Source: a bacterium | GTDB lineage: Bacteria; UBA8248 | DNA length: 64,000 bases | Reading direction: 5' to 3' | NCBI GenBank assembly: GCA_965207065.1 | Contig: OZ242260.1 | Coordinates: forward strand, 2,272,001-2,336,000 | Part shown: positions 13,107 to 37,780 of the stretch, one piece after another | How the letters are laid out: each line of letters opens with the position of its first letter | Numbering within the stretch: the first letter of the stretch is position 1 | Translations under genes and position numbers: made by a program | The notes under the pieces: generated by a model | Told to the model about the DNA's origin: nothing | What the model saw: the letters and a program-made list of their open reading frames with translations, nothing else | Database searches by the model: none

Positions 13107-13752
13107 AACAACTCCCATCACCCTGTCGCCGAACGTTTATTGCGCCAGGCTAAGCCCTGGAGAGGAGGACGCCATGACCTGAAACCTCTCGTAGCGACCC
13201 AGCGGGTTCGACTCCCGCCCGGCAAAGGCGAAGCCGGCCAGCCGGAAGCGAGTCTTGCATGGCGTGCGGCAACGCCCGTCGTGAAGCGTAGACAGCAGGT
13301 GATGAAGCGGCGGGGTAAGCCTCGAAATCGGTCAATCGACGACGCCTTCATTGTTAATCGTGTGGGGGCAGCACCGGGAGCGCCGCCAATGGCGAGGCGC
13401 AACGGGTCGTCCGGGGTCGTGGGCCGGCGCAAAGTCACGGGACGGGTCGCCAGGGAACCTGGGAGATCCTGCTCTTGCCCGTGGGAAAGAACGCTGGAAA
13501 GGGGACGGCCAGCGTGAACAATCCAGACCCCGGCCCGTCGCCGGACCTGCACGGCGGCGGGAGCGCCCCAGGGCGGACACGAACCCGGCAGGCGCCCGCG
13601 GAACCGGCTGGCGAAAACAATAAGCCGAAGGACATGCGAGGGCAGGAAGTCGTAGCGCCCTGATAGTACCGCTGAAGGCGGGGAACCGTGGCCATCGGGA
13701 CCCGCTGGAGGGAAGCGGGGCGTCATCTGTACAGAACCACTGATGGGAAACG

Positions 13753-14420
13753 ATGGAGGAAACTCTGAGTTCCACCAACACGTACACGAAACAGCAGTGG
13801 ATAGCCGAACAGGCGAGGGAGCATCCGGAGCGGGTGTTCACGTCCCTGCACCACCTCATCGACGGCGAGTGGATGCGCGAAGCGTATCGCCGCACGCGCA
13901 AGGATGGGGCGAGGGGTATCGACGGCGTGAGCGCCGCCGACTACGAGAAGGACCTGGAGGTGAATCTTGACGACCTCCTGAGCCGGATGAAGTCGGGTCG
14001 ATACTTTGCGCCGCCGGTGCGTCGGCACTACATCCCGAAGGCGGACGGCACGAAACGACCGCTCGGCATTCCGACGTTCGAAGACAAGGTGGCGCAGCGG
14101 GCAATCCTGATGCTGCTGGAGCCGATTTACGAGACGGACTTCCTGACGTGCTCGTACGGCTTCCGGCCCGGACGGTCGGCTCACGATGCCCTGGGCGCAC
14201 TTCGCACGGGCATCATCGAGCAGCGCCAACGGTGGGTGATTGACGCCGATATCTCGAAGAACTTCGACTCGATATCGCACACCCACCTGCGGTCAATCCT
14301 CGACCTGCGGATTAAGGACGGCGTCGTAAGGCGCATGATTGACAAATGGCTGAAAGCGGGGGTGCTCGAAGAGGGAGCCGTGCACAGGCCGGTCACCGGC
14401 ACTCCCCAAGGCGGGGTAAT
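13753..14420 (+). CDS. ltrA: Group II intron RT/maturase, N-terminal half
   Basis: FTSLHHLID, YIPKADG..RPLGIP, SYGFRPGRSAHDA, DADI..FD and GTPQGGV. Confidence 0.92.
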
Positions 14421-14490
14421 GACACCCCGAACGCAAAAGGCAACTTCCAGTTTGAGCGCCAGATTGTGGCGTGGCGGGATCGTTCGTTAC

Positions 14491-14519
14491 TTGATTATCG
14501 TCGCAAGAGGTAATATCAT
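14491..14519 (+). promoter_or_regulatory. Putative sigma70 promoter of the recombinase element
   Basis: TTGATT-17 bp-TATCAT, 8 bp before the ATG at 14528 (leaderless-like). Confidence 0.45.
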
Positions 14520-14527
14520 TATGACAA

Positions 14528-14848
14528 ATGACGCGTTCAACGAAGTCCCAGAAAGCCGAGCGGATCAACGCAGCCTACACGCTGCTCGCGCAGGGCGTCA
14601 CGGCGAACGAGGCTGTAGCGCTGCTATCGCAGCGTTTCGGCGTATCGAAGCGGCAGTCCTACCGCTACGTTCAGCAGGCGGTAGCCATGGACCGGCCGGC
14701 AGAGCCGGTCGAATCCCGGATTCCCATCACCATCAAGATTCCGGGCGTGTTGGCGCAAGCCCTGCGTACGCACGCCAGAAGCAGCGGCCAGGCCATCGGG
14801 GACATCGTTGCACGGGCCCTGAGACGCTTTCTCCCGGATGTGGATTGA
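14528..14848 (+). CDS. HTH plus ribbon-helix-helix DNA-binding protein
   Basis: LSQRFGVSKRQSYRYV (HTH-like); ITIKIP...IGDIVARALRRFL (RHH-like). Confidence 0.65.
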   Translation: MTRSTKSQKAERINAAYTLLAQGVTANEAVALLSQRFGVSKRQSYRYVQQAVAMDRPAEPVESRIPITIKIPGVLAQALRTHARSSGQAIGDIVARALRRFLPDVD

Positions 14849-14849
14849 A

Positions 14850-15146
14850 ATGGCTGCGCGTCGCCCGGGTTCGCGGCCCGGCGTTGAACTTGATTATCGT
14901 TTCGATCGCCTGTTCGCAGCCAGGCTCCAGAATGCCTACGAGATACTGGTTCCTGATCAGGCCCACAAAATCCCTGCCCGAAGACATGACACAGGAGACG
15001 AGGATGAAAGTCGCAGCCCTTTATGCGCGAGTCTCGGGCGAGCAGCAGAGGGAGAGCAACACGATCGCCAGCCAGACCGAGGCGCTGGTCGAATACGCCA
15101 GGAACCACGGCTACAGCGTCGCGCCGGAGATGCTCGTCGAGGATGA
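14850..15146 (+). CDS. Small ORF overlapping the recombinase start; candidate directionality factor
   Basis: Starts immediately after the HTH-RHH stop; LDYRFDRLFAARLQNAYEILVP. Confidence 0.4.
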   Translation: MAARRPGSRPGVELDYRFDRLFAARLQNAYEILVPDQAHKIPARRHDTGDEDESRSPLCASLGRAAEGEQHDRQPDRGAGRIRQEPRLQRRAGDARRG

Positions 15147-16701
15147 CGGCTACAGCGGCGCTGTTCTCGAGCGTCCGGGGCTGGAGCGGATCAGGGACCT
15201 CGCCGCGGAAGGGCGCTTCGATACATTGGTGGTTCATGCCCCGGACCGTTTGAGCCGCCGCTACGCCCACCAGATGCTGATCATCGAGGAGATGGCCCGC
15301 CAGGGCGTTGAGACCGTGTTCGTGAACGCGCCGTCGATGGAAACCCCGGAAGACAACCTCCTCGTCCAGTTCCAGGGCATGATCGCGGAATACGAGCGCG
15401 CACAGATCCTGGAGCGTTCGCGTCGCGGCAAGCGTCATCGGGCGCAGCGTGGTGAAGTTGCGGTTCTCGGAGGCGCGCCTTATGGCTACCGCTACCACAA
15501 GAAAACCTTCGAGAGCGATGCCTATTATGAAGTGCTCGAACCTCAGGCGTCGGTGGTTCGCGAAGTCTATCACTACTATACTCATGACCACATGAGCATT
15601 GGCGAGATCACCCGCAAGCTCAACGAGCGGGCGGTGCCCACGTCCTCCGGTCGCGGACGCTGGGAGCGTTCGGCCGTGTGGGCGATGCTGCGCAACCCGG
15701 CGTACAAGGGCAAGGCGTGTTTCGGCAAGACCCGCCAGATGCCGCGAAAAATCGTGACCCGTCCCTTGCGATTGCGCGGCGGTGTGGCCGGCGCCACCAC
15801 CGGCGGTCACGAGAAACCGCGTGAGGAATGGATCGAGATTCCGGTGCCGGCGATCGTCAGCGAGGAAACCTTCGCCCTGGCCGAAGAGCGGCTGGAGATG
15901 AACTAGGCCCGCGGGCCGCGCCGAACAAAGACGCCCAGCGTGGTGCAGGGGCTGGTCTCATGCGCCAAATGCGGCTATTCCCTGTATCGCACATCGACCC
16001 GGACGAGCGCCCGCACGATTTACTATTATCGCTGCCTGGGGCCCGATGCATGGCGGCATCTCAACGGGCCGGTATGCGACAATCGGCCGGTGCGCCAGGA
16101 TCTGCTTGACGAAGTTGTCTGGAGCGAAGTCGTCCGCCTTCTCGAGGATCCGAATCTGATCGGCGCCGAGATCGAGCGTCGGCTGGAGGCGGCCCGCGAC
16201 TCCGACCCCAGTCGGCAGCGCGAGACCGACTTGCGGCGCCGGTTGATCAGGGGACGAAAGAGTATCGACCGCCTGGTCAATGCCTATCAGGAGGAGCTGA
16301 TCACCATCGACGAACTGCGCGAGAGAACGCCCGAACTACGTCGTCAGGAACAGGCCCTTCATCGTGAGCTGCAGTCCGTTGTCGACCAGGTCAAGGATCG
16401 GGAAACCTACCTCCGGCTCGCCGACACGCTGACCGGGTTCCTGGCGCGGCTTCGCCCTCCGCCCGGACTCTGGGTGCCATCGAGCAACAGCTCCTTGTCC
16501 GTCTCCTCGTCAAGGAGGTATTGGTCAGTGAGGAGAAGATCACCATTCGCCATTCCATCCCGATCCCGGGGACGTCCCGTGGCAGTCCGGCCCCGTCCGA
16601 ACCCGACGACGGAGGCGAAAAGCAAAGTTACCTTTTGCGTTCGGGGTGTCATCTCGCCAATGCTTTCCAACATCTTCCTGCACCACGTGCTGGATAAGTG
16701 G
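15004..16701 (+). pseudogene. Large serine recombinase (resolvase, recombinase, Zn-ribbon, coiled coil) with in-frame TAG at 15904 and frameshift near 16457
   Basis: YARVS, DDGYSG..LERPGL, PDRLSRR, APYGY, LRNPAYKG and CAKCG...YYRC; the typical C-terminus LVRLLVKEVLV..ITIRHSIP..SYLLRSG continues in another frame. Confidence 0.9.
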
Positions 16702-17325
16702 TTCGAGGAAGAGGCGAGGCCGCGCTTGCGCGGAAACTGCCAGTTGGTGCGATTCGCCGACGACTTTGTCGTCGCCCTGGAAGACCGCCACAGCGGCAAG
16801 CGATTGCTTGACGTGCTGGGCAAACGTCTCGGCCGATACGGACTCACGCTCCATGAGACCAAGACGCGCTATGTGGACTTCCGCCGGAGGCGTCCCTACG
16901 GGCGTCACTGGATGGCGTCGGCCACGACGTTCGACTTCCTCGGCTTCACCCACGTCTGGGGGCGGTCGATGCAAGGCAAGGACGTCGTCCGCCAAATCAC
17001 GGCGAAAGGCCGCTTCGCCCGCGCGCTGAAATCGGTGCACGAATGGTGCAAGAGAAACCGGCACCTGCCGGTCAAGGCGCAGCATGACTATCTCGTCCGG
17101 GCGATACGAAGCCACTGCGCATATTACGGTCTGAGGGGGAACGGCAAACGTCTTCGGTGGTTCCGCTACCAGGTGGCTCGCACGTGGCGGAAGTGGCTTG
17201 CGCGCCGCAACCGCCTGCGTCGCATGAACCGGGACTGGATGAACGCGCTCCTCATGCGATACCCTCTTCCATATGTCTCTTACGCGCGCTCACGGCAAAG
17301 CTTCCTGAGCGAACCTGTCAGGTGA
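16653..17325 (+). CDS. ltrA: Group II intron RT/maturase, C-terminal half
   Basis: SPMLSNIFLHHVLD, VRFADD, LHETKT, FDFLGFTH and the X/thumb domain. Confidence 0.92.
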
Positions 17326-17487
17326 GGAACCGAGTGCGTCAATCGCGCACGCTCGGGTCTGTGGGGGGCGGGGCGCAGAAATGCCCCCGCCTACCCGGCC
17401 AATGCTCCGTAACCGTTCGGCGACAGGGTGATGGGAGTTGTTTCAGCGATTGAGGACTTGCTTCCAGTTGTTCCGGAGGGGACGTAG

Positions 17488-18315
17488 TCAGACATCCTTT
17501 TTGGGTTTGTCGTGGCGTTTGTACCTGTCGTATCGTCCGCGTCCCTGTGTGGTTCCGACGTGAATCCATCCTGAAGCCCTGTAGACGGCGCCGGTGTAGC
17601 GCGGCGTCTCGACGAAGGTCTCGATGAGGACGGGGGTGGTATTGTAGCGTTCGGTCCAGTCGTCGGGCAGGCGCCGGCGGATGATGGCGAGGAGATGCGA
17701 GCCGAGGTTGGGGATCTTGATCCATGGCAGGATGAGGAACCTCGGGTTGTCGACCACGAGGGGAAGGTTCTTCTCGCGCAACTGCGGCGTCCAGCCGATG
17801 AAGGCATCGCGCGGGGCGAGCTTCCACGCGGCGGTGGAGAAGCCGAGCATGGCGAGGGGCCTGCCGCCCCGGTCATGTACGGCGTAGCGCATCTGGGCGC
17901 CGACGAGGGTCTTGTAGCCGAGGTAGTGGTAGCGTGCGACGAACTCGTTCCAGAGCCTGCCCTCGCGGGTTCCGCGCACGACGATGCGCATCCCGAGGGG
18001 ACGGACCTCGTCGAGGGTCTCGGGCGCCGGGATGAGAGGCGCTTCGGTGTCTGGCCCGAAGACGATCGGCCGGGCCGGGTGCCGCGGGCGCTTCGGCGGG
18101 GGAAGCGTGATCAGGCCGTCTCTGTGCATGGCGAGCATGGTCACCCGGGCCATCATGTCCTTGAGTCCGCCGTCGGGCTTGAACCAGCCGATGCGCCGGC
18201 AGAACTCCTTGGAGAGCACGTTGCGATTGAGCGCGGGAGGGCCGGCGATCAGTTCGCGCAGCAGCGCCATCTCTTCCGTCGTGAAGTCGCGTCCGTAGTA
18301 GCGGCACTCGATCAC
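17488..18315 (-). CDS. DUF4338 (DruA-like) protein; premature TGA 15 codons before the copy-1 stop
   Basis: RYYGRDF, C....WFKPDG.LKDM, YHYLGY; KDV* here vs KDVWLRPLRNNWKQVLNR in copy 1. Confidence 0.85.
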   Translation of the reverse strand: MIECRYYGRDFTTEEMALLRELIAGPPALNRNVLSKEFCRRIGWFKPDGGLKDMMARVTMLAMHRDGLITLPPPKRPRHPARPIVFGPDTEAPLIPAPETLDEVRPLGMRIVVRGTREGRLWNEFVARYHYLGYKTLVGAQMRYAVHDRGGRPLAMLGFSTAAWKLAPRDAFIGWTPQLREKNLPLVVDNPRFLILPWIKIPNLGSHLLAIIRRRLPDDWTERYNTTPVLIETFVETPRYTGAVYRASGWIHVGTTQGRGRYDRYKRHDKPKKDV

Positions 18316-18319
18316 GGCG

Positions 18320-20632
18320 TCATCCCGGCGCCGTGAGGGCGCGCCTGCGCTCGGCGCTCATCGACCAGGGCAGCCACGCGGAGAGGTCCCCGGGCGCCCG
18401 GCCGCCGATCTGCGCGCAGGCGGTGAGCCATGCATCGAGCCAGCGGAGCGGGTCGATGCCGTTCGAGGAGAGTGTGCCGAGGACCGAGTACATCATTGCC
18501 GTGAACCCGGCGCCGGCCTCGCTGTCGGAGCCGAACGAGAGCCGCCTCCCGATCACGGGACCCCTGAGCACGCGTTCGATGGCGTTATTATCTGTCGGCA
18601 CCCAGGGGCGCTCGAGGAAGACGCTCAGCCCCTCGCGGTGGTTCAGCAGCGAGCGAAGCGCCTTGCCCTCGCGCGCCTGCGCTGGCAGGGCGGCCAGTTC
18701 GCGTCGGGCCTGCGCGAACAGGCCCTCGAGCGCCTTCTTCAATTCGTCGTGCGCCGCGTCGAACGCCGCGTCCTGGTGTTCGAGACCTGAGTCGTAACGG
18801 GCCAGGCGCGCCTCGTTCAGGCGGTAGAGCAAGGCGATCCGCTCGATCCACCTCTCGCACCACGGCGTCAGGCGCGCCTCGCCGGCCGCGCAGTCGATAA
18901 TGGTTCTTCTTTGGTGTACCCAACATGATGCGAGAGTGACCAGACCCCCGAGTTCGCGCGCCAGCTTCTTGTAGGCGCTGTAGCGGTCGCAGACGAGGAC
19001 CGTATGGCGGCCGGCCGCGCCGAAGAGCTTCATCGCGACCTCCGCACTCCGCGAGGGGTCGACGTGGAAGTAGACGGAGTCTGCGCTTAACGAGGCCCAC
19101 AGCCAGGCGCGGCTCGAGCGCCCCTGCTCGCGAAGCGACTGTATCCGCCAGGTCGTCTCGTCCCCGTGGCGCAGCGCAGACTCGTTCTGGCGGGCGAGGA
19201 TAGCCCCGGCCAGCGGCTCGAACAGGGGCGTGAACCGGTGCGCGCTGTCGCCCAGCGTCCCCGCCGAGACGGCAAGCCCCTGGTCGGAGAGCCACGCGGC
19301 GACCCGGCGCAGCGGGCGGAAGCAGGCGTAGCGCTCGAACAGGAAGCGCGCCCATACGCTCGTCCCGAAGGACGTGCCCGCGAACAGGCGCGGCGCGGGC
19401 GGCGCCGACACCTCCATGGGAGACGATGCGCATTCGCACCCCCGGCGCCACCTCGGACGGCGGATGACGCGCTTGTGGGCCGAGACCTCGATCTCGACGA
19501 GGCTCGATACACGCGCGCCGTTGGCCACGTAGGGCTGCCCGCAACAGGCGCAGACGCGCGCACCGGGCGGCGGGTTGCGAACTTCCGTCCTCGCCTCGAG
19601 CGCGGGACGAGGGGTGCGGCCATGGCCCCGGGCGCCGGGCTGCCCGCCGCGCCTGCGCTCCGAGCGTGGCTTCTCCTGCCGCTCGCTCTTGCGCCCGAAC
19701 AGCCTCCTCGCCAGCACCGCTCCCGTGGCGCGAAGCTTCGCGAGTTCGGCCTCCAGCCGCGCACGGCGGGCTTCCGACTTGCGTAGCGCACGGCGCAACC
19801 GCGCGTTCTCCCTGGTCAGGGACCCGAGCGCCGTCTTCTGGCGCCGCGACCTCCCCAGGGCCTTGCGAAGCGCCTCGTCCGAACGAGGCGTCCTCGAGCG
19901 CGCCGCCTCCTTCGCGCGCAACAGCCGCTCCTTCAGCCCCTCCTTCACTCTGGCTGCGGCCCTGAGAGAGACCCGCAAATCGTCGCGCGATTCCCGTAAC
20001 TTCCCGTAGAGCCGGATAAGCTCCTCTTCACGATACCCGATGGTCTTCTTGTGATCCGCCGTCTCCAGCTTCTCCCAGGCCAGCCGATCCTCCAGCCGGG
20101 CGACATCCTTCTCCCGCCCCTCAAGCTCCTCGCGAAGAGACTCTATCGTCTTCTCCTGCTTCTCCACGACCCGGCGCAGCCGCGCGGCCTCCTTCGGTGG
20201 CAAAGCGCCCGAGAGGGCCTTGTTCAACCGGGCCACATCCTTGCGCAGCGACTCGAGCGGGCTGCGCTCCCCCGGCTCGACTCCCGCTTCCGCGAGCAGC
20301 TTCTCCAGCCGCGCCACTTCCGCCTTGAGCGACAGCGCGTCCTTCGCCGCGCGGCGGGCTTCCTTCGCCTCCCCGGCTACCTCCTCAAGCTTCCTCCGGC
20401 TCTTGTCGAGACACCACTTCAGCGAACCCGCCCGCGCGCGCGAATCCACTTCCGCCCACCGCAACTCCTCGCAGCGCGCCTCCGCCGCCTCCGCGCGCGC
20501 ACGCGCGCGCTCGTACAGCGAACGCCAGTACGCCTCTGCTGTTGCGGGCAACCCGGGAGAATGAGGACATGGGGCATCCGGCCTCTCGACCAACGCCGGC
20601 TTCGTCTCGACAGCTTCCGTGCAAATCTTCAT
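18320..20632 (-). CDS. tnpC: IS66-family DDE transposase with long N-terminal coiled coil
   Basis: LFGRKSE, CACCG, HGDET, CDRYSAY, CWVH.RR, PTDNNAIER.LR and terminal WLPW. Confidence 0.92.
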   Translation of the reverse strand: MKICTEAVETKPALVERPDAPCPHSPGLPATAEAYWRSLYERARARAEAAEARCEELRWAEVDSRARAGSLKWCLDKSRRKLEEVAGEAKEARRAAKDALSLKAEVARLEKLLAEAGVEPGERSPLESLRKDVARLNKALSGALPPKEAARLRRVVEKQEKTIESLREELEGREKDVARLEDRLAWEKLETADHKKTIGYREEELIRLYGKLRESRDDLRVSLRAAARVKEGLKERLLRAKEAARSRTPRSDEALRKALGRSRRQKTALGSLTRENARLRRALRKSEARRARLEAELAKLRATGAVLARRLFGRKSERQEKPRSERRRGGQPGARGHGRTPRPALEARTEVRNPPPGARVCACCGQPYVANGARVSSLVEIEVSAHKRVIRRPRWRRGCECASSPMEVSAPPAPRLFAGTSFGTSVWARFLFERYACFRPLRRVAAWLSDQGLAVSAGTLGDSAHRFTPLFEPLAGAILARQNESALRHGDETTWRIQSLREQGRSSRAWLWASLSADSVYFHVDPSRSAEVAMKLFGAAGRHTVLVCDRYSAYKKLARELGGLVTLASCWVHQRRTIIDCAAGEARLTPWCERWIERIALLYRLNEARLARYDSGLEHQDAAFDAAHDELKKALEGLFAQARRELAALPAQAREGKALRSLLNHREGLSVFLERPWVPTDNNAIERVLRGPVIGRRLSFGSDSEAGAGFTAMMYSVLGTLSSNGIDPLRWLDAWLTACAQIGGRAPGDLSAWLPWSMSAERRRALTAPG

Positions 20633-20739
20633 GCCGACATGATTACCACATGCCGAAAAGTGTTACCAGAGCTTCAGGGAAATCTCTTCGATTATCCGGG
20701 ATGAGAAAAGCGGGCCATCACCCTGTCGCCGAACGGTTA

Positions 20740-21548
20740 TTGCGCCAGGCTAAGCCCTGGAGAGGAGGATGCCATGACCTGAAACCTCTCGTAGCGACCC
20801 AGAGGGTTCGACTCCCGCCCGGCAAAGGCGAAGCCGGCCAGCCGGAAGCGAGTCTTGCATGGCGTGCGGCAACGCCCGTCGTGAAGCGTAGACAGCAGGT
20901 GATGAAGCGGCGGGGTAAGCCTCGAAATCGGTCAATCGACGACGCCTTCATTGTTAATCGTGTGGGGGCAGCACCGGGAGCGCCGCCAATGGCGAGGCGC
21001 AACGGGTCGTCCGGGGTCGTGGGCCGGCGCAAAGTCACGGGACGGGTCGCCAGGGAACCTGGGAGATCCTGCTCTTGCCCGTGGGCAAGAACGCTGGAAA
21101 GGGGACGGCCAGCGTGAACAATCCAGACCCCGGCCCGTCGCCGGACCTGCACGGCGGCGGGAGCGCCCCAGGGCGGACACGAACCCGGCAGGCGCCCGCG
21201 GAACCGGCTGGCCAAAACAATAAGCCGAAGGACATGCGAGGGTAGGAAGTCGTAGCGCCCTGATAGTACCGCTGAAGGCGGGGAACCGTGGCCATCGGGA
21301 CCCGCTGGAGGGAAGCGGGGCGTCATCTGTACAGAACCACTGATGGGAAACGATGGAGGAAACTCTGAGTTCCACCAACACGTACACGAAACAGCAGTGG
21401 ATAGCCGAACAGGCGAGGAATGCCTCGACCTGCGGACCAAGGGTGACAACCCCTTGAGCGAACCTGTCAGGTGAGGAACCGAGTGCGTCAATCGCGCACG
21501 CTCGGGTCTGCGGGGGGAGGGGCGCAGCAATGCCCCCTCCTACCCGGC
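20740..21548 (+). mobile_element. ORF-less group II intron (809 nt), deletion derivative of 13140-17399
   Basis: 20740-21418 is near-identical to 13140-13818; joined near 21455 to intact domains V and VI ending CTACCCGGC. Confidence 0.9.
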
Positions 21549-21962
21549 CAATGCTCCGGCGACAACGACCCCCCGGGATACGCAGGCATTGTAACGAATC
21601 CGCTTGCGGGTTGATTACGGGTCGTGGAGGGTGGATTTCGAAGATTCAGTTAAAGATAATACTATCAATATATTAGATAGATATGTGTCTAATCTAACCG
21701 GATGGATGCACCTAATTTATCGAATAACCCCGTGAATTTATCTATATTTACGGAAATGATTATTTGCATTTCGCATGTTCCCCGCTTCGACTGATCGACG
21801 GCCCGGCTCCTGCGATCCGCGCCCCTTCCACCCCCTGAAAAAAGAAAGCCGACGGGCTGTCTCCCGAGCATACCCCATCCCCCCGGAAATTCCGTAACGG
21901 CGAATGCGGGCACATGCGCGCGCCGAACGCGACCTGTTCGGGACGAGGAGGAAGAGAACCAA

Positions 21963-22100
21963 CCCCCCTACCCCCCCTTGTCAGGGGTCAAACGCGAGTG
22001 AGGAACGAGCGTTTGCATAAGCCATTGGCGGGAAACGCATCGGCTTGCAATTCCTCTCTCCCCGGTCGGAATTGACCCCTGACAAGGGGGGGTAGGGGGG
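21963..22100. repeat. 138-bp element with perfect 29-bp inverted repeats (MITE/REP-like)
   Basis: cccccctacccccccttgtcaggggtcaa at 21963-21991 and its reverse complement at 22072-22100. Confidence 0.8.
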
Positions 22101-27219: not shown

Positions 27220-27329
27220 CGGGAGGACCTGTGCGGTCTCCGGAGGCGGCGTTCCTTCACGTTTACAAGAGAAATGGCTGAGGGCAAAAAAAGTTGAGAA
27301 CGCGTCGTAATCGACCGCCCGAGAAGCCC

Positions 27330-28158: not shown

Positions 28159-29166
28159 ATGAATATTACCAATAATTTTACTCATCAAACTCCCAGGCCA
28201 AAAACTACCGTCGCGCCCGTAACGGTCATCCGCTTCGGTGAAATGATGCCTGATTGGGGGGAATATCACGAATCGCACATGGAGGGGAACCATCGAGCGA
28301 TATATCGATACATCGGCGGAATTTCCGGTCAAAATCTTCGCTCTCCACTCCCCGGCTGGGAATTCACCTGTGGCGTCGTCATGGCTCCCCCTCAAAACGG
28401 CGCACCTCTTCACGATCATCCGGATGAAGAGGTTTTCATGGTCTGGGAGGGTGAATTTGAGATTTTCTGGGAAGATTTTGATTCCAAAGAGCTAAAAAAC
28501 GTGATTCTGGGCAAATATGATCTTATCCGCGTCCCCTCGGGTGTGATGCGCGGGTTCAGAAATGTCGGAAAGGACGATGGCTTCCTGCACTTCATCCACG
28601 GGCAAGGCGACTACCAATATCCCGTCTACCCCGAATCGCTACAAGAGGGTCTGCCCGAAGGTGTTCGCACCAAACCTTACGTCAACCAACCCGCATATGA
28701 CCCGGCTTCCCAATTGGTGCGTTTCGAGGAATGTCCACGCAACTGGAATGTATACCACGAAGCAAAATTGCCTGAGTGTGTTCGTTCCCTGAGGCGCTAC
28801 ATCGGCGGTGTATCCGGGGATACGGATGAAGGCCCACCGCCTTCACTTTCCGAAGGAGAGATAGGGTACGCCATGGTGGAATGCGGCAATGGACGGGGCG
28901 CACCGCTTCATGACCATCCGTGTGAGGAAATATTTATCCCGCTGGAAGGCAGGTGGGTCGTCTACTGGTCCGATGAACGCGGAAGCATCCACCAGGCCGT
29001 TCTCGACCCGTGGGATGCCTGCTGGGTGCCCACCGGAGTACAACGCGGGTTCCGGAACGCCGACCGCACCGAGGGGAAAATTCACATCATTCAAGGACAA
29101 GGAGGAACCCCGGCCCCAAACTATACGGCGGATTACTCCACTCTAAAAAATATTCAAACGAAATAA
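28159..29166 (+). CDS. Bicupin protein
   Basis: Two repeats of RYIGG.SG...GAPLHDHP.EE.F...P.GV.RGFRN. Confidence 0.85.
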   Translation: MNITNNFTHQTPRPKTTVAPVTVIRFGEMMPDWGEYHESHMEGNHRAIYRYIGGISGQNLRSPLPGWEFTCGVVMAPPQNGAPLHDHPDEEVFMVWEGEFEIFWEDFDSKELKNVILGKYDLIRVPSGVMRGFRNVGKDDGFLHFIHGQGDYQYPVYPESLQEGLPEGVRTKPYVNQPAYDPASQLVRFEECPRNWNVYHEAKLPECVRSLRRYIGGVSGDTDEGPPPSLSEGEIGYAMVECGNGRGAPLHDHPCEEIFIPLEGRWVVYWSDERGSIHQAVLDPWDACWVPTGVQRGFRNADRTEGKIHIIQGQGGTPAPNYTADYSTLKNIQTK

Positions 29167-29362
29167 CAGGACGGAAATGAACTCGACCAGTAATTCTGTC
29201 CGTTTTACTTTTCTCGGCGATGACGCGCTCCCTCTTTGGCGTTACTCTGATGTTCTTCTTCTGCGGTATACTTGAGGAATTGTCGTTCGAGAAGGCGGAT
29301 ATCACCGTCCTCTGGGAGAAATTCTCGGAGTATCGTACCTATGTCGTGAAAGGTGAGGACTG

Positions 29363-30409
29363 ATGGATAGCGGCAAACGTGACGAGAATGGGGAGAACGC
29401 CCGTTTCTTGCTGGAAAGTCTTCAAAACGCCGTTGCGCTGCTTGTCCGTCTATGCGACTTTAAGATTGTCTTCGAGAATGAGCGGTTCCGCTCCTGGCTC
29501 CCTGCAACCGGCGAGAACGTGAATACGCTTGTTTCTCGAATAGGCGAGTTGGACGGCGCGGCGGTGAAGACCTGCCTGGACGGCGGCGATCCGTATCTTT
29601 TCGAGATGTTGGCGCGGGAGGAATCGAGGCCGAAACCGCTGCAAGTCGTGATTCGCAGGCTCCCCGGTTCGTGGGCGGCGCATGTGATGGTGGAATGTTT
29701 CGACATATCAAGGCAACACGAATTAGAGCACATGATGGAGAGTTATTTGGAGATATTCGAAAGGGCGCATATCGACCTGAGTGAAAAACTGCGCGGCGGG
29801 GAGAAGCTGATTGGCAACATGTTGCACGGGTTCGTCCGTCGCGAACTGGAAAATCAAGGGGTCGTGGCACCGCGAAGATTCGAACGCCTGACAACGTTAA
29901 TACTTGATTTCGTCGATTTCACAACAACGACCATGTCGCAGGACCTCGCTCACGTGGTCATGATATTGAACGACATCTGCACGGAATTCGACCGCATTGC
30001 GGAGATATCCGGGTGCGAGCGGATCAAGACGATTGGAGACGCCTGGCACGCGGTGCCCGCCCTTCCAGTTCCGGATGATCGCCAATCATCCAAAGTGGCG
30101 CGGATGGCGCTCCGGATGAGACATTACATCAAAGAACGCAACCGCACTCATCCGGAACAATGGGTGCCGCATCGGGCTCGCTACCGGCCCGGCAATCGGG
30201 GCCATGGTAGGAGTGCAAAGGCTTGCCTATGACGTGTTCGGGCCGAGCGTGAACCTTGCATCCCGCTTGGAGGCGCTGGCCGATTCGATGCAGATCCTTG
30301 TCTGTGAAAAAACGCAAGCGTTGACGGAGGCGGAGTTTTCCTTCGGCAAATGGGGAGAGGTCGAAATCAAGGGTTTTGGATCCCAGGTGATTCACGAACT
30401 CTTCGACTA
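29363..30409 (+). pseudogene. Adenylate/guanylate cyclase, frameshifted near 30165
   Basis: DFVDFT and ERIKTIGDA in one frame; YDVFGPSVNLASRLE and VEIKGFG in another. Confidence 0.85.
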
Positions 30410-30605
30410 GACGAATCCTCTGGTTTCTTGCTCCCTCATTTGCCTGAACAAGAATAACCCCCTAGGTTAGCGAATGATTCGCAAAGTTGTTTGACGTGCG
30501 AGACAAAGCGATCTTGGGCATGTAATATGTCCACATTCTGTTGACTTAAGGCACAGGCCTCTATATATCGCTTACCCGCCCTGCCAAACTTTCCGGGAGA
30601 AGATA

Positions 30606-31922
30606 ATGATGAACAGAGAGCGGAAATACCGACTGGGAACAGGGGTACTTGGGTTCGTCATGGCTTTGTCGTTGTTCGCCGCGCCTGCCGCCGGTGGAGA
30701 GATGGACGACCTCAAGACGCAGATCAAGGCGCTCATGGAGCGGCTCGAAGCCCTGGAAGCCCGAGAGAAGAAGATGAAGGCCGATATGATGTCTGCCCAG
30801 GAGGCCGTCCGGAAAAAAGCCGTGGCCACGGGCGATTTTCCGGGTTCGTGGAAGATGCCGGGGTCGAACACTTCCGTTTCGTTCAGCGGCTACGTGAAGC
30901 TCGATGCGATCTATGATTTCGACAAGGATCTGGGCGATTCCTTTTTCGGCTATGATTACGGGGGCGGTGCGAGCGGCATTCCTCTGGATGGCGATGCCAG
31001 ACGACAAAAAACCTCCCTGCACGCCCGGCAGACGCGCCTTCGCTTCGACAGCCTGACGCCGACGAAGATGGGCGGGCTCAAGACCAGGATCGAAACAGAT
31101 TTTTATTACAATTCCGGCGCACCTTTGAGACTTCGCCACGCCTACGCCACTTTGGGCGGGGTGCTCGCCGGCCAGACCTGGACGATCCTGCAGGACGAGA
31201 ATACCTATGCCGACACGGTGGACTTCGAAGGTCCTGTCGGCGTCGTTACGAGCCGCCTGGCCCAGTTGCGCTACACCCAGGCCATGGGAAAGAACCTCAC
31301 CGCCCAGGTTGCGCTCGATGACCCCGGCAGCCCGACCATTCTGAAAGCAGGCGGCAATGCCTCGTCCGAGGACCGGATGCCGAACCTGCTTGCGGCCCTG
31401 CGCCTGAAGACGGCCTGGGGCGCCGTTAACGTATCGGGCCTCATCGGACAGGTACTCTACGAAGAAGGGGCGGTTGAGGAGAGCCTGACCATCTCCGCAC
31501 TTCACCTCGGCGCAAACGTCGGTCTGGGCAGGGACACCCGCCTGTGGGGCACGTTCAACGTGGGCCAGGGCGGTTTGGGGAACTACATGCTCGGAGTACC
31601 CGCCGCCGCCGTCCTGGGTGCGAATAACGAACTGGAGGCGCTGGATTCGACGGGCGGGTTCGTGGGCATCACGCACAACTGGAGCGGTTCGGTGAGTTCG
31701 AGTTTATATTACGGCTGGGTGGAGAACGATTATGAGGACCCGGCCAGGGCGGCGTTCCCGGACCTCAGCCAATCGCTCCAGACGGTGCACGCCAACGTCT
31801 GGTGGTCACCTGCGCCCAAGACGAGGGTAGGCGTGGAATTCATCCATGGCCGACGCGAGACGAACGACGGCAGAGAGGGTGACGCGGCGCGCCTGCAGTT
31901 GGGGCTGCAGTACAGCTTCTAG
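30606..31922 (+). CDS. DcaP-like outer-membrane porin
   Basis: Signal peptide, N-terminal coiled coil, GYVKLDA.YD, ARQTRL, RLRHAY, LAGQTW and terminal YSF. Confidence 0.85.
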   Translation: MMNRERKYRLGTGVLGFVMALSLFAAPAAGGEMDDLKTQIKALMERLEALEAREKKMKADMMSAQEAVRKKAVATGDFPGSWKMPGSNTSVSFSGYVKLDAIYDFDKDLGDSFFGYDYGGGASGIPLDGDARRQKTSLHARQTRLRFDSLTPTKMGGLKTRIETDFYYNSGAPLRLRHAYATLGGVLAGQTWTILQDENTYADTVDFEGPVGVVTSRLAQLRYTQAMGKNLTAQVALDDPGSPTILKAGGNASSEDRMPNLLAALRLKTAWGAVNVSGLIGQVLYEEGAVEESLTISALHLGANVGLGRDTRLWGTFNVGQGGLGNYMLGVPAAAVLGANNELEALDSTGGFVGITHNWSGSVSSSLYYGWVENDYEDPARAAFPDLSQSLQTVHANVWWSPAPKTRVGVEFIHGRRETNDGREGDAARLQLGLQYSF

Positions 31923-32291
31923 TTTTTTTATATGGCTTGTGGGCTGCCGCTACCGGCATCCCCGGTTGCTTGCTATCATCACTGCGTGCGACGGCAGCGT
32001 GGTCGTCTCCCGTCCGGGAGAGTTGCTTTCGGTGAATCCACGCATCTCCCGTCATGGTGAGGAACGCGCCCGCGAATGTCCGGGAGGGATTTGGGTTTGC
32101 GATTTCCCGTCGGTTCGCCCTGGAATTTCATGCGGCACAAAAACCAGACACGGCGGCTTGAGAGTCGCCGCATGTTCAGTCCGCAGCGAACTCGCAGGGG
32201 CCTTGGGAGAGGGGTTGGACTTTCTCTTGCGCGAAGGCTCCATTTTTTCTTCGAATCGACCGGCTTACACAACGAGAACAGGGGGCCAACC

Positions 32292-33329
32292 ATGAAATCC
32301 AGAGTATTGCTTATCTTCGTTTTGACTCTCGCTATCGGGGCGTCAGCGCTCGTATCCCTCCCCGGCAAGGCCGATGCCGCCTGCAGTGTCCGCATCGGCG
32401 ACCTGAACTGGGACAGCGCCAACTTTCACGATCAGGTGACCGCGTTCATCCTGGAGCACGGCTACGGCTGCCGGGTGCGGCTCATCTACGGCGGCACGCT
32501 GCCGATCATGACGGCCCACTACGAGGGCAAGAACGACATTGTCATGGAGCTTTGGTACGACAACGTGAAGGCGCAGTATGACCCCGCCATGAAGAGCGGC
32601 AAGGTCAAACAAGTAGGGGTCAACACGCCCGACAGCATACAGGGCTGGTTCATCCCGCGCTTCGTCCAGAAGGCGAATCCGGGTCTCAAGTCGGTCTTCG
32701 ACCTGCCCAAATACAAGCATCTCTTCAAGGACCCCGAAGAACCCTCCAAAGGCCGGTTCGTGAACTGCATCCCAGGCTGGTCCTGCGAGGTCATCAACAC
32801 GGTGAAGCTGCGCGCCTACGGGCTGGAAAAACACTTCACCAATTTCCGGCCCGGCTCGGGCGGCGCGCTCGCGGCGGCCATCAAGGGCGCGTATCTCAAG
32901 AAAAAACCCGTACTCGCCTATTACTGGGCGCCGACGCCGCTCCTGGGACAACTCGATCTCGTCCAGCTCGAAGAGCCTGCATGGAACGAGGCCGACTGGA
33001 ACGTTGTAGTGAAACACATGGACGCGCTCAAGAAGGGCGGAATGGAGGCTTTGGGGAACCCGAAGAAAGCGACAGCCTACCGGACGGCGGAACTGCCGAA
33101 ATCGGTCACGACAAAGTTCGCGGCCAAGCATCCCGAGATCGTCGCCTTCATCGAGAAATACACGCTCCCGTCGAAAGAGGTCTCAAAGATGCTGGCCTAT
33201 CTCGAGACCAAGGCCGGCGGCGACGCCAAAACCACCGCTATCCATTTCCTGAAGACCAACAAGGTCTGGAAGAAGTGGGTTCCGGCCGACGTCGCGAAAA
33301 AGATCGAGGAGGCGCTCAAATCTGCGTAA
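32292..33329 (+). CDS. proX: Glycine betaine/proline ABC substrate-binding protein
   Basis: LNWDSA, C.PGWSCE, PGSG.AL and YYWAPT. Confidence 0.85.
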   Translation: MKSRVLLIFVLTLAIGASALVSLPGKADAACSVRIGDLNWDSANFHDQVTAFILEHGYGCRVRLIYGGTLPIMTAHYEGKNDIVMELWYDNVKAQYDPAMKSGKVKQVGVNTPDSIQGWFIPRFVQKANPGLKSVFDLPKYKHLFKDPEEPSKGRFVNCIPGWSCEVINTVKLRAYGLEKHFTNFRPGSGGALAAAIKGAYLKKKPVLAYYWAPTPLLGQLDLVQLEEPAWNEADWNVVVKHMDALKKGGMEALGNPKKATAYRTAELPKSVTTKFAAKHPEIVAFIEKYTLPSKEVSKMLAYLETKAGGDAKTTAIHFLKTNKVWKKWVPADVAKKIEEALKSA

Positions 33330-33390
33330 GCCGCGCCCGCGCGATGCTTTTCACTCGTGAAGCAGCGTTAAATCCCGGGGAGGTCCGCCC

Positions 33391-34299
33391 ATGATGAACT
33401 TAATCCGCGGACTGTTCCCGGAGTGGGCGGTCGAGTGGCCAAAGAATCTCAACCTGCCGCTCAACAAGTGGACCAACGATTTCGTGGAGTGGCTGGTCAC
33501 CGAGTACGGGGTCATCTTCGAGACCGCCTCGGACGCCATACTCGTGGTGCTGGTGGGCCTGGAGCGCTTCCTGCGCGACCTCCCGTGGGTTGTCGTATTC
33601 CTCGGCGTGGGAGCGGTCACATTCTATTCCAGCGGGCGCAAATGGGGCCTGACCGCGCTCGTGGCCGCCTGCATGTTCTTCATCGGTCTCACCGATCCCA
33701 GGCTCTGGGACTTGTCGATGATGACCCTTTCGGTGATGCTTGTCTCCACCCTCATCTGCATCGGAGTTGGCGTTCCGGTCGGCATCGCGATATCGAGAAA
33801 CGACCGGATGCGCGACATGGTGCTGCCCGCACTCGACCTGATGCAGACCATGCCGAGCTTCGTCTATCTCATTCCGGCGATCATGCTCTTCGGCCTGGGC
33901 GCGGTGCCCGCCGTCTTCGCCACGGTGATCTACGCCATCCCGCCGGTGATACGCCTGACCGACCTGGGCATCCGCCTGGTGGATGAGGACATCGTCGAAG
34001 CTTCCGACGCCATGGGCGCGAGCAAGAGGCAGAAGCTCCTTCGCGTGCAGATACCGATGGCGCTGCCCAACATCATGCAGGGGGTCAACCAGACGACGAT
34101 GATGGCGCTCGCGATGGTGGTGATCGCCTCAATGATCGGAACGCGGGGGCTTGGCACCGAGGTGCTCATCGGCCTCCAGCAGCTCAACGTCGGCCGCGCG
34201 CTCGAGGCCGGCGTGGCCATCGTGCTGCTCGCCATCGTCATGGACCGCGTCACACAGGCCTACGGCGGGCGCTTCATCCGCATGGACGGGAGGGGCTGA
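33391..34299 (+). CDS. proW: Glycine betaine/proline ABC permease
   Basis: LDLMQTMPSFVYLIP and GVNQTTMMALAMVVIASMIG. Confidence 0.92.
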   Translation: MMNLIRGLFPEWAVEWPKNLNLPLNKWTNDFVEWLVTEYGVIFETASDAILVVLVGLERFLRDLPWVVVFLGVGAVTFYSSGRKWGLTALVAACMFFIGLTDPRLWDLSMMTLSVMLVSTLICIGVGVPVGIAISRNDRMRDMVLPALDLMQTMPSFVYLIPAIMLFGLGAVPAVFATVIYAIPPVIRLTDLGIRLVDEDIVEASDAMGASKRQKLLRVQIPMALPNIMQGVNQTTMMALAMVVIASMIGTRGLGTEVLIGLQQLNVGRALEAGVAIVLLAIVMDRVTQAYGGRFIRMDGRG

Positions 34300-34303
34300 G
34301 CCG

Positions 34304-35332
34304 ATGGCGCTGATCGAGGTGCGAAACGTCTACAAGATATTCGGAACGGGACGCGCGCTGGACACGGCGCTCGAAATGGCCCAAACGGGAGTCGAGAAGA
34401 ACGACGTGCTGGTCGAGACCGGCTGCACCCTGGGCTTAAAGGACGTGAGCCTCTCCGTCGAGCGCGGCGAGATATTCGTGGTCATGGGCCTTTCGGGTTC
34501 GGGAAAATCTACCCTGATCCGCCACATCAACCGGCTGATCGACCCGACGACGGGCCAGATACTCGTCGACGGGCGGGACGTTCTCGAATTCTCGACCGAG
34601 GAGTTGCTCGCCTTCCGGCGGGGCGCCGTGAGCATGGTCTTTCAGCGTTTCGCGCTCTTTCCGCACTTGACGGTCATTGAGAACGTGGGCTACGGCCTGG
34701 AAGTCCAGGGGGTGGAACCTGCCGAGCGGCGCCGGCGCGCGATGCGGTGGATAGAGGACGTGGGCCTCATCGGCTATGAAAACGCCTACCCGGCCCAGCT
34801 ATCGGGCGGCATGCAGCAGCGCGTGGGTCTGTCGCGCGCGCTGTGCACGGACCCCGAGATTCTCCTCATGGACGAGCCATTCAGCGCCCTGGATCCGCTG
34901 ATCCGCAAGCAGATGCAGGAACACCTCATCGCGCTCCAGCGCGACCTCAAGAAGACCATCGTCTTCATCACTCATGATCTGGACGAGGCGCTCAAGCTGG
35001 GCGATGACGTCGCCATCCTGAAGGACGGCGTGATCGACCAGATAGGCGGGCCGGAGGAGATTCTGCTCAACCCTGCCACCGAATACGTGCGCGAGTTCGT
35101 GCGCGACGTGAAGCGGGGCCGCGTGGTGACGGCGGCCTCCATCATGACGCCGCCGTGCAGCGAGACCACCGGTCCGGTCGTATCGCGCGACACCGTGCTT
35201 CAGGACGCGCTGCCCAAATCCATCGCGAGCGACGCGCCGCTTCGGGTGGTTGACGATGCGGGCGCCGTCGTCGGCGCTCTCTCCCGCGAGACCCTCCTTC
35301 GCGGACTGGCGGACCATTCCGGGAAGGCGTGA
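34304..35332 (+). CDS. proV: Glycine betaine/proline ABC ATP-binding protein
   Basis: MGLSGSGKST, LSGGMQQRVGL and MDEPFSALDPLIR. Confidence 0.92.
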   Translation: MALIEVRNVYKIFGTGRALDTALEMAQTGVEKNDVLVETGCTLGLKDVSLSVERGEIFVVMGLSGSGKSTLIRHINRLIDPTTGQILVDGRDVLEFSTEELLAFRRGAVSMVFQRFALFPHLTVIENVGYGLEVQGVEPAERRRRAMRWIEDVGLIGYENAYPAQLSGGMQQRVGLSRALCTDPEILLMDEPFSALDPLIRKQMQEHLIALQRDLKKTIVFITHDLDEALKLGDDVAILKDGVIDQIGGPEEILLNPATEYVREFVRDVKRGRVVTAASIMTPPCSETTGPVVSRDTVLQDALPKSIASDAPLRVVDDAGAVVGALSRETLLRGLADHSGKA

Positions 35333-35339
35333 GGCGGGG

Positions 35340-35620
35340 CTTCGCGCCTGCCCGGCGCTAGTCCCGCCAGGGAAGATGGTCCGGATCGGCCTCGCGAGCT
35401 CGTAAACTCTCGAATGCGCCTTGGTTTTCCCGATCCCGTATCGTCGATGTTTGTCCTTATCCGCCCACCGGCCTGCTCACATTCCTCGCGGCGCCGCGTA
35501 CGCGCCGTGAAGTTGAAAACCGTGTTTCGCCAAGTCGATACCCATGATGTGAACCTGATCCATCCTGCTCCCTCTGCAAAGCGGAAAGCAGGGCCGTGCT
35601 GCAACGGTGTGTTACGACCG
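35340..35620 (-). mobile_element. Internally deleted IS110/IS1111-family remnant
   Basis: ATG at 35563 after gggagcagg encodes MDQVHIMGIDLAKHGFQLHG, then runs into non-coding sequence. Confidence 0.6.
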
Positions 35621-35789
35621 GAATAGGTCGTCTACCCTGTCGGGAGCGGAAGATACTGGGTTGTGCTCGACGTTGCGGTGACGAGCGCGGCGATGGGCGC
35701 TCGGAAGATATAGCGGGCGGCCAAACGCCCCCCAACTCCGCATCCATGATTGCCCCTCCCGGCAGCCGGTAATCCGCTTCGCTCAGGAA

Positions 35790-36125
35790 CCGCTTTGCGA
35801 GATCAGACAGAGCGAGTTCCGCCACAAGCGGTCCGGGCGAGGGGTCTTCTCACGTCTTGATCTGGTCGATGACCGTGGCGGCCTTCTCCCTCGCCTCCTC
35901 ACGTGGCATCTCGCCGTGGCGACCAAGCGTCACACGCACAGGTCCCCGGGGAGCTCTCGACTGGACCACGTAGGTCTTACGGCCAGTCGCGTGGACGCGC
36001 ACCCCGAAGCCCGCCGGCTCTCGGTCCCGGAAGAGGGCGTCCCCCGCACCGATCTCCAGGAAGTCGACGTCGCACTTGGTGAGCCTGCGTTCGCTTCGTT
36101 TCTGAATATTCCCTTCCCGATCCAT
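35790..36125 (-). pseudogene. Truncated tyrosine integrase (N-terminal arm-binding domain only)
   Basis: LTK..VD...RD.E..GFGVRV..TGRKTYVVQ.R...RVTLGRHG...EEARE.A, then a stop. Confidence 0.75.
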
Positions 36126-36541
36126 TGTAATCAAATCGCGAACGTACCACGTTAATCCGGAGCGAATTCCAGCATTAGCATGACGGAAAGGCAAGCGGAA
36201 AACAGACAGGAAAAAACGCATTTATGTGGGATTAACATGAATTTGTATACGGAAGCGCCATTGTCGTAAGGATGGATCATGAACCATGTATCTCCCTTCT
36301 CAGTCGGAACTGACTTCATCAGTCGCGTCAATCGCTCCTTTATTAATCATGAAATCCTCCCTGGTTTTTTTCACCACAGGAAGTGAAGTTATAAATATCT
36401 GTACTTATATCGATTATATCATTTATTGTTCATTCTTGGGCCATGCAAGAAATGCACATTTCAAAGCTTGTAATCAAAACGAAAGCGGACTCATTACAAC
36501 CCCCGCGAATCCATTCGAACGAATGTCGATCAAAATCGGCG

Positions 36542-37331
36542 GCCGGGTAGGCGGGGTCGTTGTCGAGCCCCGCCCCCCACAGACCCGAGCGTGCGCGATT
36601 TACGCACTCGGTTCCTCACCTGACAGGTTCGCTCAAGAAGCTCGAATGCTTCCTCGCCTGTTCGGCTATCCACTGATGTTTCGTGTACGTGTTTGTGGAA
36701 CTCAGGGTTTCCTCCAACGTTTCCCATCAGTGGCTCTGTACAGATGACGCCCCGCTTCCCTCCAGCGGGTCCCGGTGGCCACGGTTCCCCGCCTTCAGCG
36801 GTACTATCAAGGCGCTACGACTTCCTGCCCTCGCAACTCCTTCGGCTTATTGTTTTCGCCAGCCGGTTCCGCGGGCGCCTGCCGGGTTCGTGTCCGCCCT
36901 GGGGCGCTCCCGCCGCCGTGCAGGTCCGGCGTCGGGCCGGGGTCTGGATTGTTCACGCCGGTCGTCCCCTTTCCAGCGTTCTTGCCCACGGGCAAGAGCA
37001 GGATCTCCCAGGTTCCCTGGCGACCCATCCCCGTAACTTTGCGCCGGTCCACGACCCCGGACGACCCGTTGCCCCTCGCCAATAGCGGCGCTTCCGGTGC
37101 TGCCCCCACACGATTAACAATGAGTGCGTCGTCGATTCACCGATTTCGAGGCTTACCCCGCCGCTTCATCACCTGCTGTCTTCGCTTCACGACGCGCGTT
37201 GCCGCACGCCACGTAAGACTCGCTTCCGGCTGGCCGGCTTCGCCTTTGCCGGGCGGGAGTCGAACCCGCTGCGTCACTACGAGAGGTTTCAGGTCATGGC
37301 GTCCTCCTCTCCAGGGCTTAGCCTGGCGCAA
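36542..37331 (-). mobile_element. ORF-less group II intron (790 nt), diverged copy of the 13140 family
   Basis: Minus strand TTGCGCCAGG...CTACCCGGC; same EBS1; RT removed at a junction different from copy 2. Confidence 0.9.
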
Positions 37332-37780
37332 TATCCGTTCATCCGGGCCGTGATGGAGGCCGGCTTAAGCTGTTGAGAGTTCGTTTCCAGTTTTTCCTGA
37401 GGGAATGGAGCCGGATATCCTTTTCCGGTTGTGCGCGCCTCGTGTATCTGTCTTAGCGTCCACGTCCCTGTGTGGTTCCGACGTGAATCCATCCCGATGC
37501 CCTGTAGACGGCGCCGGTGTAGCGGGACGTCTCGACGAAGGTCTCGATGAGGACGGGGGTCGTGCCATAGCGTTCGGTCCAGTCTCCGGGCAGGCGTCTG
37601 CGGATGATGGCGAGGAGGTGCGAGCCGAGGTTGGGGATTTTGATCCATGGCAGGATGAGGAACCTCGGGTGGTCGTCCACGAGGAGGAGGCTCTTTTCGC
37701 GCAACTTGGGTATCCAGCCGATGAAGCTGTCGCGCGGGGTGAGCTTCCACGCAGCGTTGCTGTAACCGAGCATGGCGGGG
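37332..37780 (-). mobile_element. Right-end remnant of a related IS66 (DUF4338 3' part plus IR)
   Basis: RFLILPWIKIPNLGSH...TTQGRGR; minus-strand IR ccatcacggcccggatgaacggata abuts the intron; terminal C at 36541. Confidence 0.8.

Follow-up and report, generated by a model that had tools for sequence, protein, structure and literature searches.

A group II intron found one base inside the tips of IS66-type insertion sequences and MITEs

The subject of this report is a group II intron present in three copies in a 64,000-nt stretch of the 4.48-Mb genome of a UBA8248 bacterium (GCA_965207065.1, contig OZ242260.1, positions 2,272,001-2,336,000 of the forward strand; hereafter the window). In this bacterium and in its relatives the intron is found one base inside the outer tip of insertion sequences (ISs) of IS66 type and of their miniature derivatives, MITEs (miniature inverted-repeat transposable elements). 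We consider it highly probable – we would put it at about 85% – that these introns form an endonuclease-less (En-less), RmInt1-like lineage (Rfam family RF02005) that naturally homes to the last 13 nt at the outer edge of terminal inverted repeats (IRs), those of IS66-type elements (transposase plus DUF4338 ORF) and of the MITEs derived from them.

Junctions in the window

The junctions of the three copies involve the following features (ORF, open reading frame; RT, reverse transcriptase; IBS, intron-binding site):

12520-13139, + strand: IS-A remnant, an IS66-type right end with a fragment of a DUF4338/DruA-like ORF, 95.8% identical to 18029-17410
13140-17399, + strand: intron copy 1 (group II), of full-length type; a nested element divides its RT/maturase gene; RF02005 123.6 bits
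17400, + strand: the C that ends IS-A, displaced by the intron and opening the 3' exon (IBS3), from the junction sequence
17401-17408, no strand: aatgctcc, 8-bp target duplication of IS-B, left copy, identical to 21550-21557
17409-20739, − strand: IS-B, transposase and DUF4338/DruA-like ORF; end at 17409 intact, other end interrupted one base from the tip
20740-21548, + strand: intron copy 2 (group II), 809 bp long and without an ORF; RF02005 123.6 bits
21549-21557, + strand: terminal C of IS-B (21549) and right copy of its duplication, aatgctcc (21550-21557), from the junction sequence
36541, − strand: displaced terminal C of the IS-C remnant, from the junction sequence
36542-37331, − strand: intron copy 3 (group II), 790 bp long and without an ORF; RF02005 111.7 bits
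37332-37801, − strand: IS-C remnant, an IS66-type right end that retains part of a DUF4338-like ORF; identity to IS-A and IS-B 84-90%

With junctions marked by a slash, copy 1 reads ...ccatcaccctgtcgccgaacgttta/ttgcgcc...cctacccggc/c: its 5' exon, ending gaacgttta, is the IR of the 620-bp IS-A remnant (approximately 13115-13139) without only its final base. In copy 2 the order is ...gaacggtta, intron, c, followed at once by the duplication, and in copy 3 (− strand, intron read from 37331 to 36542) it is ...gaacggata, intron, c; all three introns begin TTGCGCC and end cctacccggc. An uninterrupted terminus, gtaaccgttc at 17409-17418 (gaacggttac on the other strand), is present in IS-B, the two IRs of which are identical. 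Since the same aatgctcc precedes 17409 and follows the C at 21549, the duplication of IS-B (17409-20739 plus C 21549) encloses the whole of IS, intron and C. Either IS end is used: copies 1 and 3 occupy the end on the side of the DUF4338 ORF, copy 2 the one nearer the transposase. A sequence-only reading of this DNA had already placed the three copies between an IS66-type IR end and a single C, with the duplication after the C of copy 2 and with left and right IRs hit by outward-pointing introns, all of which the junction sequences and the Rfam matches bear out; the intact terminus that it described is likewise there, with the small correction that it starts at 17409 and not after it.

The host elements are of IS66 type by several measures. 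ISs of the IS66 family make 8-bp target duplications and have IRs beginning GTAA, as ISfinder describes them; in addition to aatgctcc at IS-B we found five more duplications matching at 8/8 positions, and IRs that start gtaac, gtaag or gtat. The transposase of IS-B (18320-20632, 770 aa), the single PF03050 match in the genome (181.9 bits), is an IS66-type DDE enzyme (NF033517, 270 bits against a cut-off of 180), and apart from IS-B the genome has no complete element of the IS66 family. In canonical IS66 elements tnpC is preceded by two accessory genes, tnpA and tnpB, whereas IS-B has one long transposase followed by the DUF4338/DruA-like ORF (17488-18315, − strand, 275 aa). The fragment of this ORF in IS-A (12558-13106) matches Pfam DruA at E=5.3e-38, and a tblastn search with the DruA-like protein gave 82.9% for IS-C. 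The same pair of genes lies upstream of the intron at many public loci; nowhere in our literature search was DUF4338 described as a gene belonging to an IS.

Anatomy of the intron

The intron matches RF02005, the model of ribozyme domains 1-4 of a group II intron, over its full length (positions 1-225); scores run from 111.7 to 123.7 bits (cut-off 49), with the three window copies all in this range. The genome holds a single intact intron-encoded protein (IEP), that of copy B (genome 1476282-1478310, 2029 bp): 419 aa, situated in domain 4, and scoring 364.7 bits on the RT/maturase model TIGR04416 (cut-off 300). RVT_1 is its only Pfam domain, and no HNH or other nuclease domain was found in it. 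Copy 1 aligns to copy B on either side of an insert, a 2.23-kb foreign element (14421-16650) in its RT gene that alone accounts for its length of 4260 bp and that divides the TIGR04416 match between two ORFs (13753-15906 and 15940-17325). In copies 2 and 3 the gene is deleted, and these represent two distinct ORF-less forms of 809 and 790 bp; by alignment, the second deletion lineage is common to copy 3 and genome copy A. Between copy 2 and the one at genome 1524934-1525742 the identity is 100%.

Copies across the genome and in relatives

Placement in IRs, at either IS end, holds for copies 1-3, for 5/8 readable 5' junctions in this genome, for 12/12 junctions in the genus and for 27/42 public loci whose exon ends in TA. 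The survey of genome and relatives, of the kind that the sequence-only reading had proposed as a check on its claim, upholds specialisation on IS66-type ends – in other genomes as in this one – with the qualification that two of the eight junctions in this genome lie elsewhere, the remaining one being a degenerate IR-like end.

Within the genome BLAST located seven complete copies and two fragments. Every readable 3' junction is followed by C and every 5' exon ends in TA (8/8 in both cases). MITEs of approximately 122 bp with IS66-type IRs carry copies B and D at their right end, the MITE of copy B within a perfect duplication, taaccatg. Copy C has 17 exon nucleotides in common with a stretch at 194.4 kb, the end of which reads ...gttac and which is separated from a MITE by 8 bp; the site of copy C is a probable degenerate IR end. 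For copies A, C and E no inverted partner IR was found within 6 kb. By GC skew the origin lies at approximately 1.25 Mb and the terminus at approximately 3.55 Mb; 8/9 copies, a small number, are co-oriented with fork movement, corresponding to the lagging-strand template.

The intron occurs in 9/22 other genomes of the genus and was not found in 19 genomes of eight other genera of the family (0/19). Its 12 junctions with usable flanks, from seven other genomes of the genus, all read ...(C/T)ATCA..CGAA...TA before the intron. A protein scan of genome contigs yielded 80 loci (numbered with the prefix L; L044 was left out as the same place as L016), and here it should be borne in mind that the counts are of loci, several of which carry the same IS sequence. 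IEPs with 81-97% identity come from bins whose labels are Nitrospinota, Alpha- and Gammaproteobacteria, Binatia, Thermodesulfobacteriota, Gemmatimonadetes and further groups; introns and ISs thus seem to move together between hosts of different phyla. Loci were classified by an automatic rule: transposase/DUF4338 genes upstream in the correct orientation, or a partner IR matching at 18/27 positions or better at a distance of 100-145 nt, or the IR motif. The rule is satisfied by 11/12 loci of the genus, and the 27 TA-type public loci that satisfy it comprise 19 IS ends, five MITEs and three cases with the motif only. Among TA-type introns with both junctions available, 45/47 have C at +1. Perfect 8/8 duplications enclose MITE, intron and C in five of 12 MITE cases, which come from different genomes.

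A further 25 public loci are relatives with other targets. Most are antisense in a conserved motif of IS66 tnpC, which links the wider clade to IS66 as well. Those with approximately 70% IEP identity (L009, L010, L098-L113), from Bradyrhizobium and Rhizobium plasmids and other Alphaproteobacteria, have sites of the form ..g(c/t)gcccagc/a, the antisense of the W(A/S)H.RR motif; L062 and L063 lie in the sense orientation, in the C-terminal tnpC motif ..LNG.EPYAY/L. At one locus (L058, approximately 2307-6360 of a public contig) two introns stand head to tail at one IS end, the second directly after the ...CCCGGC of the first.

Base pairing with the 5' exon

A critical question is what the intron recognises. 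Two exon-binding sites (EBS) can be placed in copy 1:

13328-13332, + strand: EBS2, UCGGU, internal loop of domain 1 (Rfam alignment), pairing with exon positions −12 to −8 (GCCGA)
13355-13360, + strand: EBS1, UAAUCG, hairpin loop of domain 1 at the position of EBS1 in the Rfam model, pairing with exon positions −6 to −1

The second of these is the loop TAATCG that the sequence-only reading had matched to IBS1, an assignment strengthened by its position in the model and by covariation across 73 distinct intron/exon combinations (from the genome, the genus and public contigs), which we compared with 2000 shuffles. EBS1 and IBS1 pair at a mean of 5.55 of six positions; the shuffles average 3.32 and nowhere exceed 3.92. 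The 22 different EBS1 hexamers each fit their own exons: in copy B, for example, EBS1 is UAAGCG and the exon CGCTTA, a perfect match. At the variable position −4, within TA-type targets, 40/48 pair where 24.3 are expected, a figure reached by none of the 2000 shuffles. Over −12 to −8, 3.95 of the five positions pair with EBS2 (2.90 in shuffles), and relatives show compensatory changes: UGGG with CCC, UCAG with CUGA and GCUCU with AGAGC. The EBS1/IBS1 and EBS2/IBS2 pairings of a group II intron are, on this comparison of sequences, present.

Could pairing be the whole of the matter? On such an account the intron only reads, by base pairing, a sequence of approximately 13 nt that the IS66 IR contains by chance, without any true specialisation on transposon ends. 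EBS1 and EBS2 do account for target recognition, and sites outside IRs that mimic the last six nucleotides are occupied (copy C, and L056, L061 and L066 with CGATTA/C, are examples). Yet the genome contains 35 empty sites that pair at 6/6 and 5/5 positions (wobble allowed) with C at +1, and the number of sites whose pairing equals that of the weaker occupied ones is 2187; pairing alone therefore does not explain the choice of site. Five of eight insertions instead fall within some 20 IR-like ends, some of them with pairing of only 5/6 and 4/5, and the association recurs in other phyla, where variants of EBS1 track variants of the IR. We regard this account as unlikely, and consider a determinant in the IR additional to pairing to be likely.

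A second alternative is that the copies did not home independently and are passengers, duplicated along with an IS or MITE. Identical 5' exons and upstream IS genes at L058-L060, at L049/50/54 and at L074/75 would accord with this, and duplications that enclose IS and intron would be expected from composite transposition too. Against it, introns that are identical (copies 2 and C, 809/809) or nearly so (copy D, in a MITE, at 99.75%) have different exons and stand at different IRs – the left end of IS-B, a remnant that resembles an IR, and a MITE – insertions occur at left and right ends alike, and EBS1 covaries with the exon. Passenger duplication as the general explanation is thus very improbable.

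More remote still, to the point of being scarcely credible, is a reversal of the order of events, with IS66-type elements inserting beside the 5' ends of resident introns. Such elements do tend to insert 8 bp from the end of another; but the last base of the IR lies beyond the intron, with the target duplication immediately after it, an arrangement explained only by entry of the intron into an inserted element, and arrays of two IRs 8 bp apart exist without an intron (genome 194.4 kb).

Observations that weigh against homing to IR tips

Homing to IR tips, the explanation that we favour, has to be set against a number of observations that weigh on the other side. The most direct are exceptions. 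Copy A lies in a small repeated ORF of a region resembling an ICE (integrative conjugative element); homology to the other copies of the ORF breaks at the junction, so that this site is not an IR. The site of copy E matches no recognised IS66-type end, and 15/42 TA-type public loci were classed as 'other', being without evidence of an IS. The claim of the sequence-only reading that the family always inserts at IS66 IRs was for these reasons too strong.

Strand provides further reservations. Copy 3 lies on the leading-strand template; only 4/9 lagging-oriented IR-like ends are occupied, as is 1/12 of those in the leading orientation, a tally made by eye and suggestive only; and an automatic table of occupied and empty ends by strand gave p=0.23, which is not significant, the underlying regular-expression scan being noisy (some of its hits were spurious, and it failed to pick up copies B and 3). 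In addition, the genus, public and pairing sets contain related loci, with the consequence that the shuffle tests overstate independence, although the existence of many distinct pairs of EBS1 and exon does not depend on the independence of loci.

The remaining points concern the intron itself. The Rfam model of domains 5 and 6 (RF00029) scores 35.3 bits on copy B, below its gathering cut-off of 40, and no window copy reached that score. The alignment covers model positions 1-77, includes CCUACCC and stops exactly at ...CCCGGC, the proposed 3' splice site; in copy 2 folding predicts two hairpins for domains 5 and 6 (−45.8 kcal/mol, z −2.35). Group II introns have the consensus boundaries 5' GUGYG and 3' AY, and here all copies have 5' UUGCG and 3' ..GGC. 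Across the clade and its relatives the first base of the intron (U, with the ..GGC end) and the penultimate base seem to co-vary: relatives that start with G (L120, and a further intron of the window at 45359-47287) have a penultimate A. The odd boundaries look like co-variation of these two bases and not like a misplaced boundary. Finally, assembled contigs from public runs, which as contigs are uninformative on splicing and on empty sites, contain no spliced or empty-site joint. Contigs from DNA runs bridge both junctions of copy 2, and one contig from an RNA library, the same in two runs, spans a junction between MITE IR and intron; no joint skips 20740-21548.

A possible mechanism

With these reservations, the mechanism that we propose for the lineage is as follows. 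EBS2 (UCGGU) pairs with positions −12 to −8 and EBS1 (UAANCG) with −6 to −1, the terminal C of the IS being +1; a site one base from the tip thereby keeps every paired position within the IS. Both ends of any IS copy, in any genomic context, are targets, and the intron always points outward. Reverse splicing would take place into the lagging-strand template at the replication fork and be primed by nascent DNA: the lack of a nuclease domain, together with the co-orientation of 8/9 copies with the fork, fits retrohoming of the RmInt1 type. The ORF-less copies of 790 and 809 bp would be mobilised in trans by the sole intact RT/maturase, that of copy B, and the identity of ORF-less copies at unrelated ends (809/809) suggests that such homing has been recent.

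A more ambitious synthesis is possible, although as a whole it must be considered doubtful. It holds that the intron is an obligate hyperparasite of one IS family, that it recognises the IR beyond the 13 nt, and that by capping the tip it brakes the IS, forming part of a three-level chain of parasites. Recognition may involve contacts of the protein with the conserved ATCACC block, or a lagging-strand hairpin formed by arrays of IR, 8 bp and IR; the host family may be that defined by the IS66 transposase plus the DUF4338 ORF, and an occupied end may no longer be cleavable. The intron may travel with the IS between phyla in sponge-labelled metagenomes, and may itself be parasitised by a serine-recombinase element at a conserved RT motif.

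Insertion habits of the host elements

IS66-type ends recurrently lie 8 bp (once 9 bp) from an inverted IS66-type end, also at places that are free of introns. Cases are found in the window (17400-17409), elsewhere in the genome (1478311-1478321, 1962079-1962087 and 194448-194456) and at public loci L015, L023, L031, L036 and L077. From these sequences it would seem that IS66-type elements enter the 8 bp flanking the tip of another copy, giving palindromes of IR, 8 bp and IR.

A motif of approximately 45 nt (..GTT GTAATGAATCCGCTTTCG nTTTGATTAC), followed by AT-rich DNA, has eight copies in the genome (window 21591-21630 and, on the − strand, 36497-36455; genome 939431, 1198622, 1962253 and 3203143). 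Six of the eight have an IS66-type end 35-45 nt upstream, and the motif also lies downstream of intron-occupied ends in related genomes; it may be a preferred insertion site of the IS family. Short perfect palindromes, consisting of the 3' strand of domain 6 and its own reverse complement, each adjoin an IS66-type end (genome 2259468-2259508, 1944342-1944384 and approximately 939120-939144), and look like remnants of aberrant or snapped-back insertion.

Other elements of the window

Two further features deserve mention:

14421-16650, + strand: element of 2.23 kb nested in copy 1, with inverted ends of 24 bp; its large gene for a serine recombinase is interrupted by a stop at 15906
45359-47287, + strand: fourth group II intron, of another lineage; RF02005 168.9 bits, IEP 40.8% identical, 5' GUGCG

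The nested element, with Pfam domains Resolvase, Recombinase and Zn_ribbon_recom and the inverted ends GACACCCCGAACGCAAAAGGCAAC, interrupts the RT motif ..PQGGV(I)/SP.L.N of copy 1. Comparison of its junctions with the empty site in copy B shows that only 'at' is repeated, which rules out an 8-bp duplication. The same family occurs at the same motif in the RT of a 48%-identical intron on plasmid pT136b of Rhizobium sp. T136; positions of nested elements are, apart from that in copy 1, approximately 270-2505 of L124 and genome 1493310-1495137. These may be recombinase elements that target intron RT genes, an association for which our literature search found no description, and their recurrence at one RT motif constitutes a separate lead.

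The fourth intron lies outside any IR, antisense in a small ORF that is repeated approximately 12 times in ICE-like regions; an empty counterpart of its site is present at genome 1545105/1545106.

Relation to known systems

If occupied ends are unable to transpose, as the sequence-only reading had supposed, introns of this kind would limit the expansion of IS66-type elements, and the clear rules of EBS/IBS pairing make the lineage a candidate for retargeting studies. How far does it resemble systems already described? Elements of the IS1111 group, IS4321 and IS5075, insert into the 38-bp IRs of transposons of the Tn21 family. These too are mobile elements that target the terminal repeat of another transposon, the difference being that they are driven by a DNA transposase and are not RNA-guided retroelements.

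Among retroelements, the sequence-only reading had taken introns that home into IS ORFs as the known case. RmInt1 (in ISRm2011-2) and Sr.md.I1 are of that kind: both home into ISs, as the present intron does, with En-less IEPs of similar size, but they interrupt transposase ORFs rather than IR tips, and their 5' end is GUGCG. The target of Sr.md.I1 is the transposase ORF of an IS66-family element (PMC4615759), and the relatives of the present intron with approximately 70% IEP identity are also in IS66 tnpC, antisense (..gcgcccagc/a). Class D is a candidate placement for the IEP, which is only approximately 45% identical to intron proteins of Sinorhizobium meliloti GR4. The Rfam family of domains 1-4 is shared: on RF02005 an intron of S. 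meliloti GR4 reaches 145 bits. The S. meliloti GR4 copy at L013 is 5'-degenerate.

The picture of ORF homing is incomplete, for homing to IS IRs is already in print. In the published account (PMC4615759), all copies of RmInt2, a class D intron of S. meliloti GR4, lie in the left and right IRs of ISRm17, which offers two targets per IS on opposite strands. The argument of two targets per IS copy, to which the sequence-only reading had also come for the present intron, was thus put forward before by the authors of that account, and the novelty attached to it was overrated. The likeness goes further: according to the same account and a second one (PMC4615759, PMC5894124), RmInt2 is En-less, with relaxed EBS2/IBS2 pairing, a bias to the lagging strand and head-to-tail copies, the last of which the pair at L058 recalls. 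There are also differences. ISRm17 is an ISNCY element of the ISDol1 group and not an IS66 (PMC10194956); the IEPs are only approximately 45% identical to those of S. meliloti GR4; IBS3 is A in RmInt2 and C here; and the 5' end UUGCG is unlike that of RmInt2. Our literature search found no description of an intron at the tips of IS66 IRs. The present intron targets a different IS family from RmInt2, and represents a second, independent and much more widespread case of a retroelement living on the ends of DNA transposons, one whose recognition sequence lies wholly within the last 13 nt of the IS.

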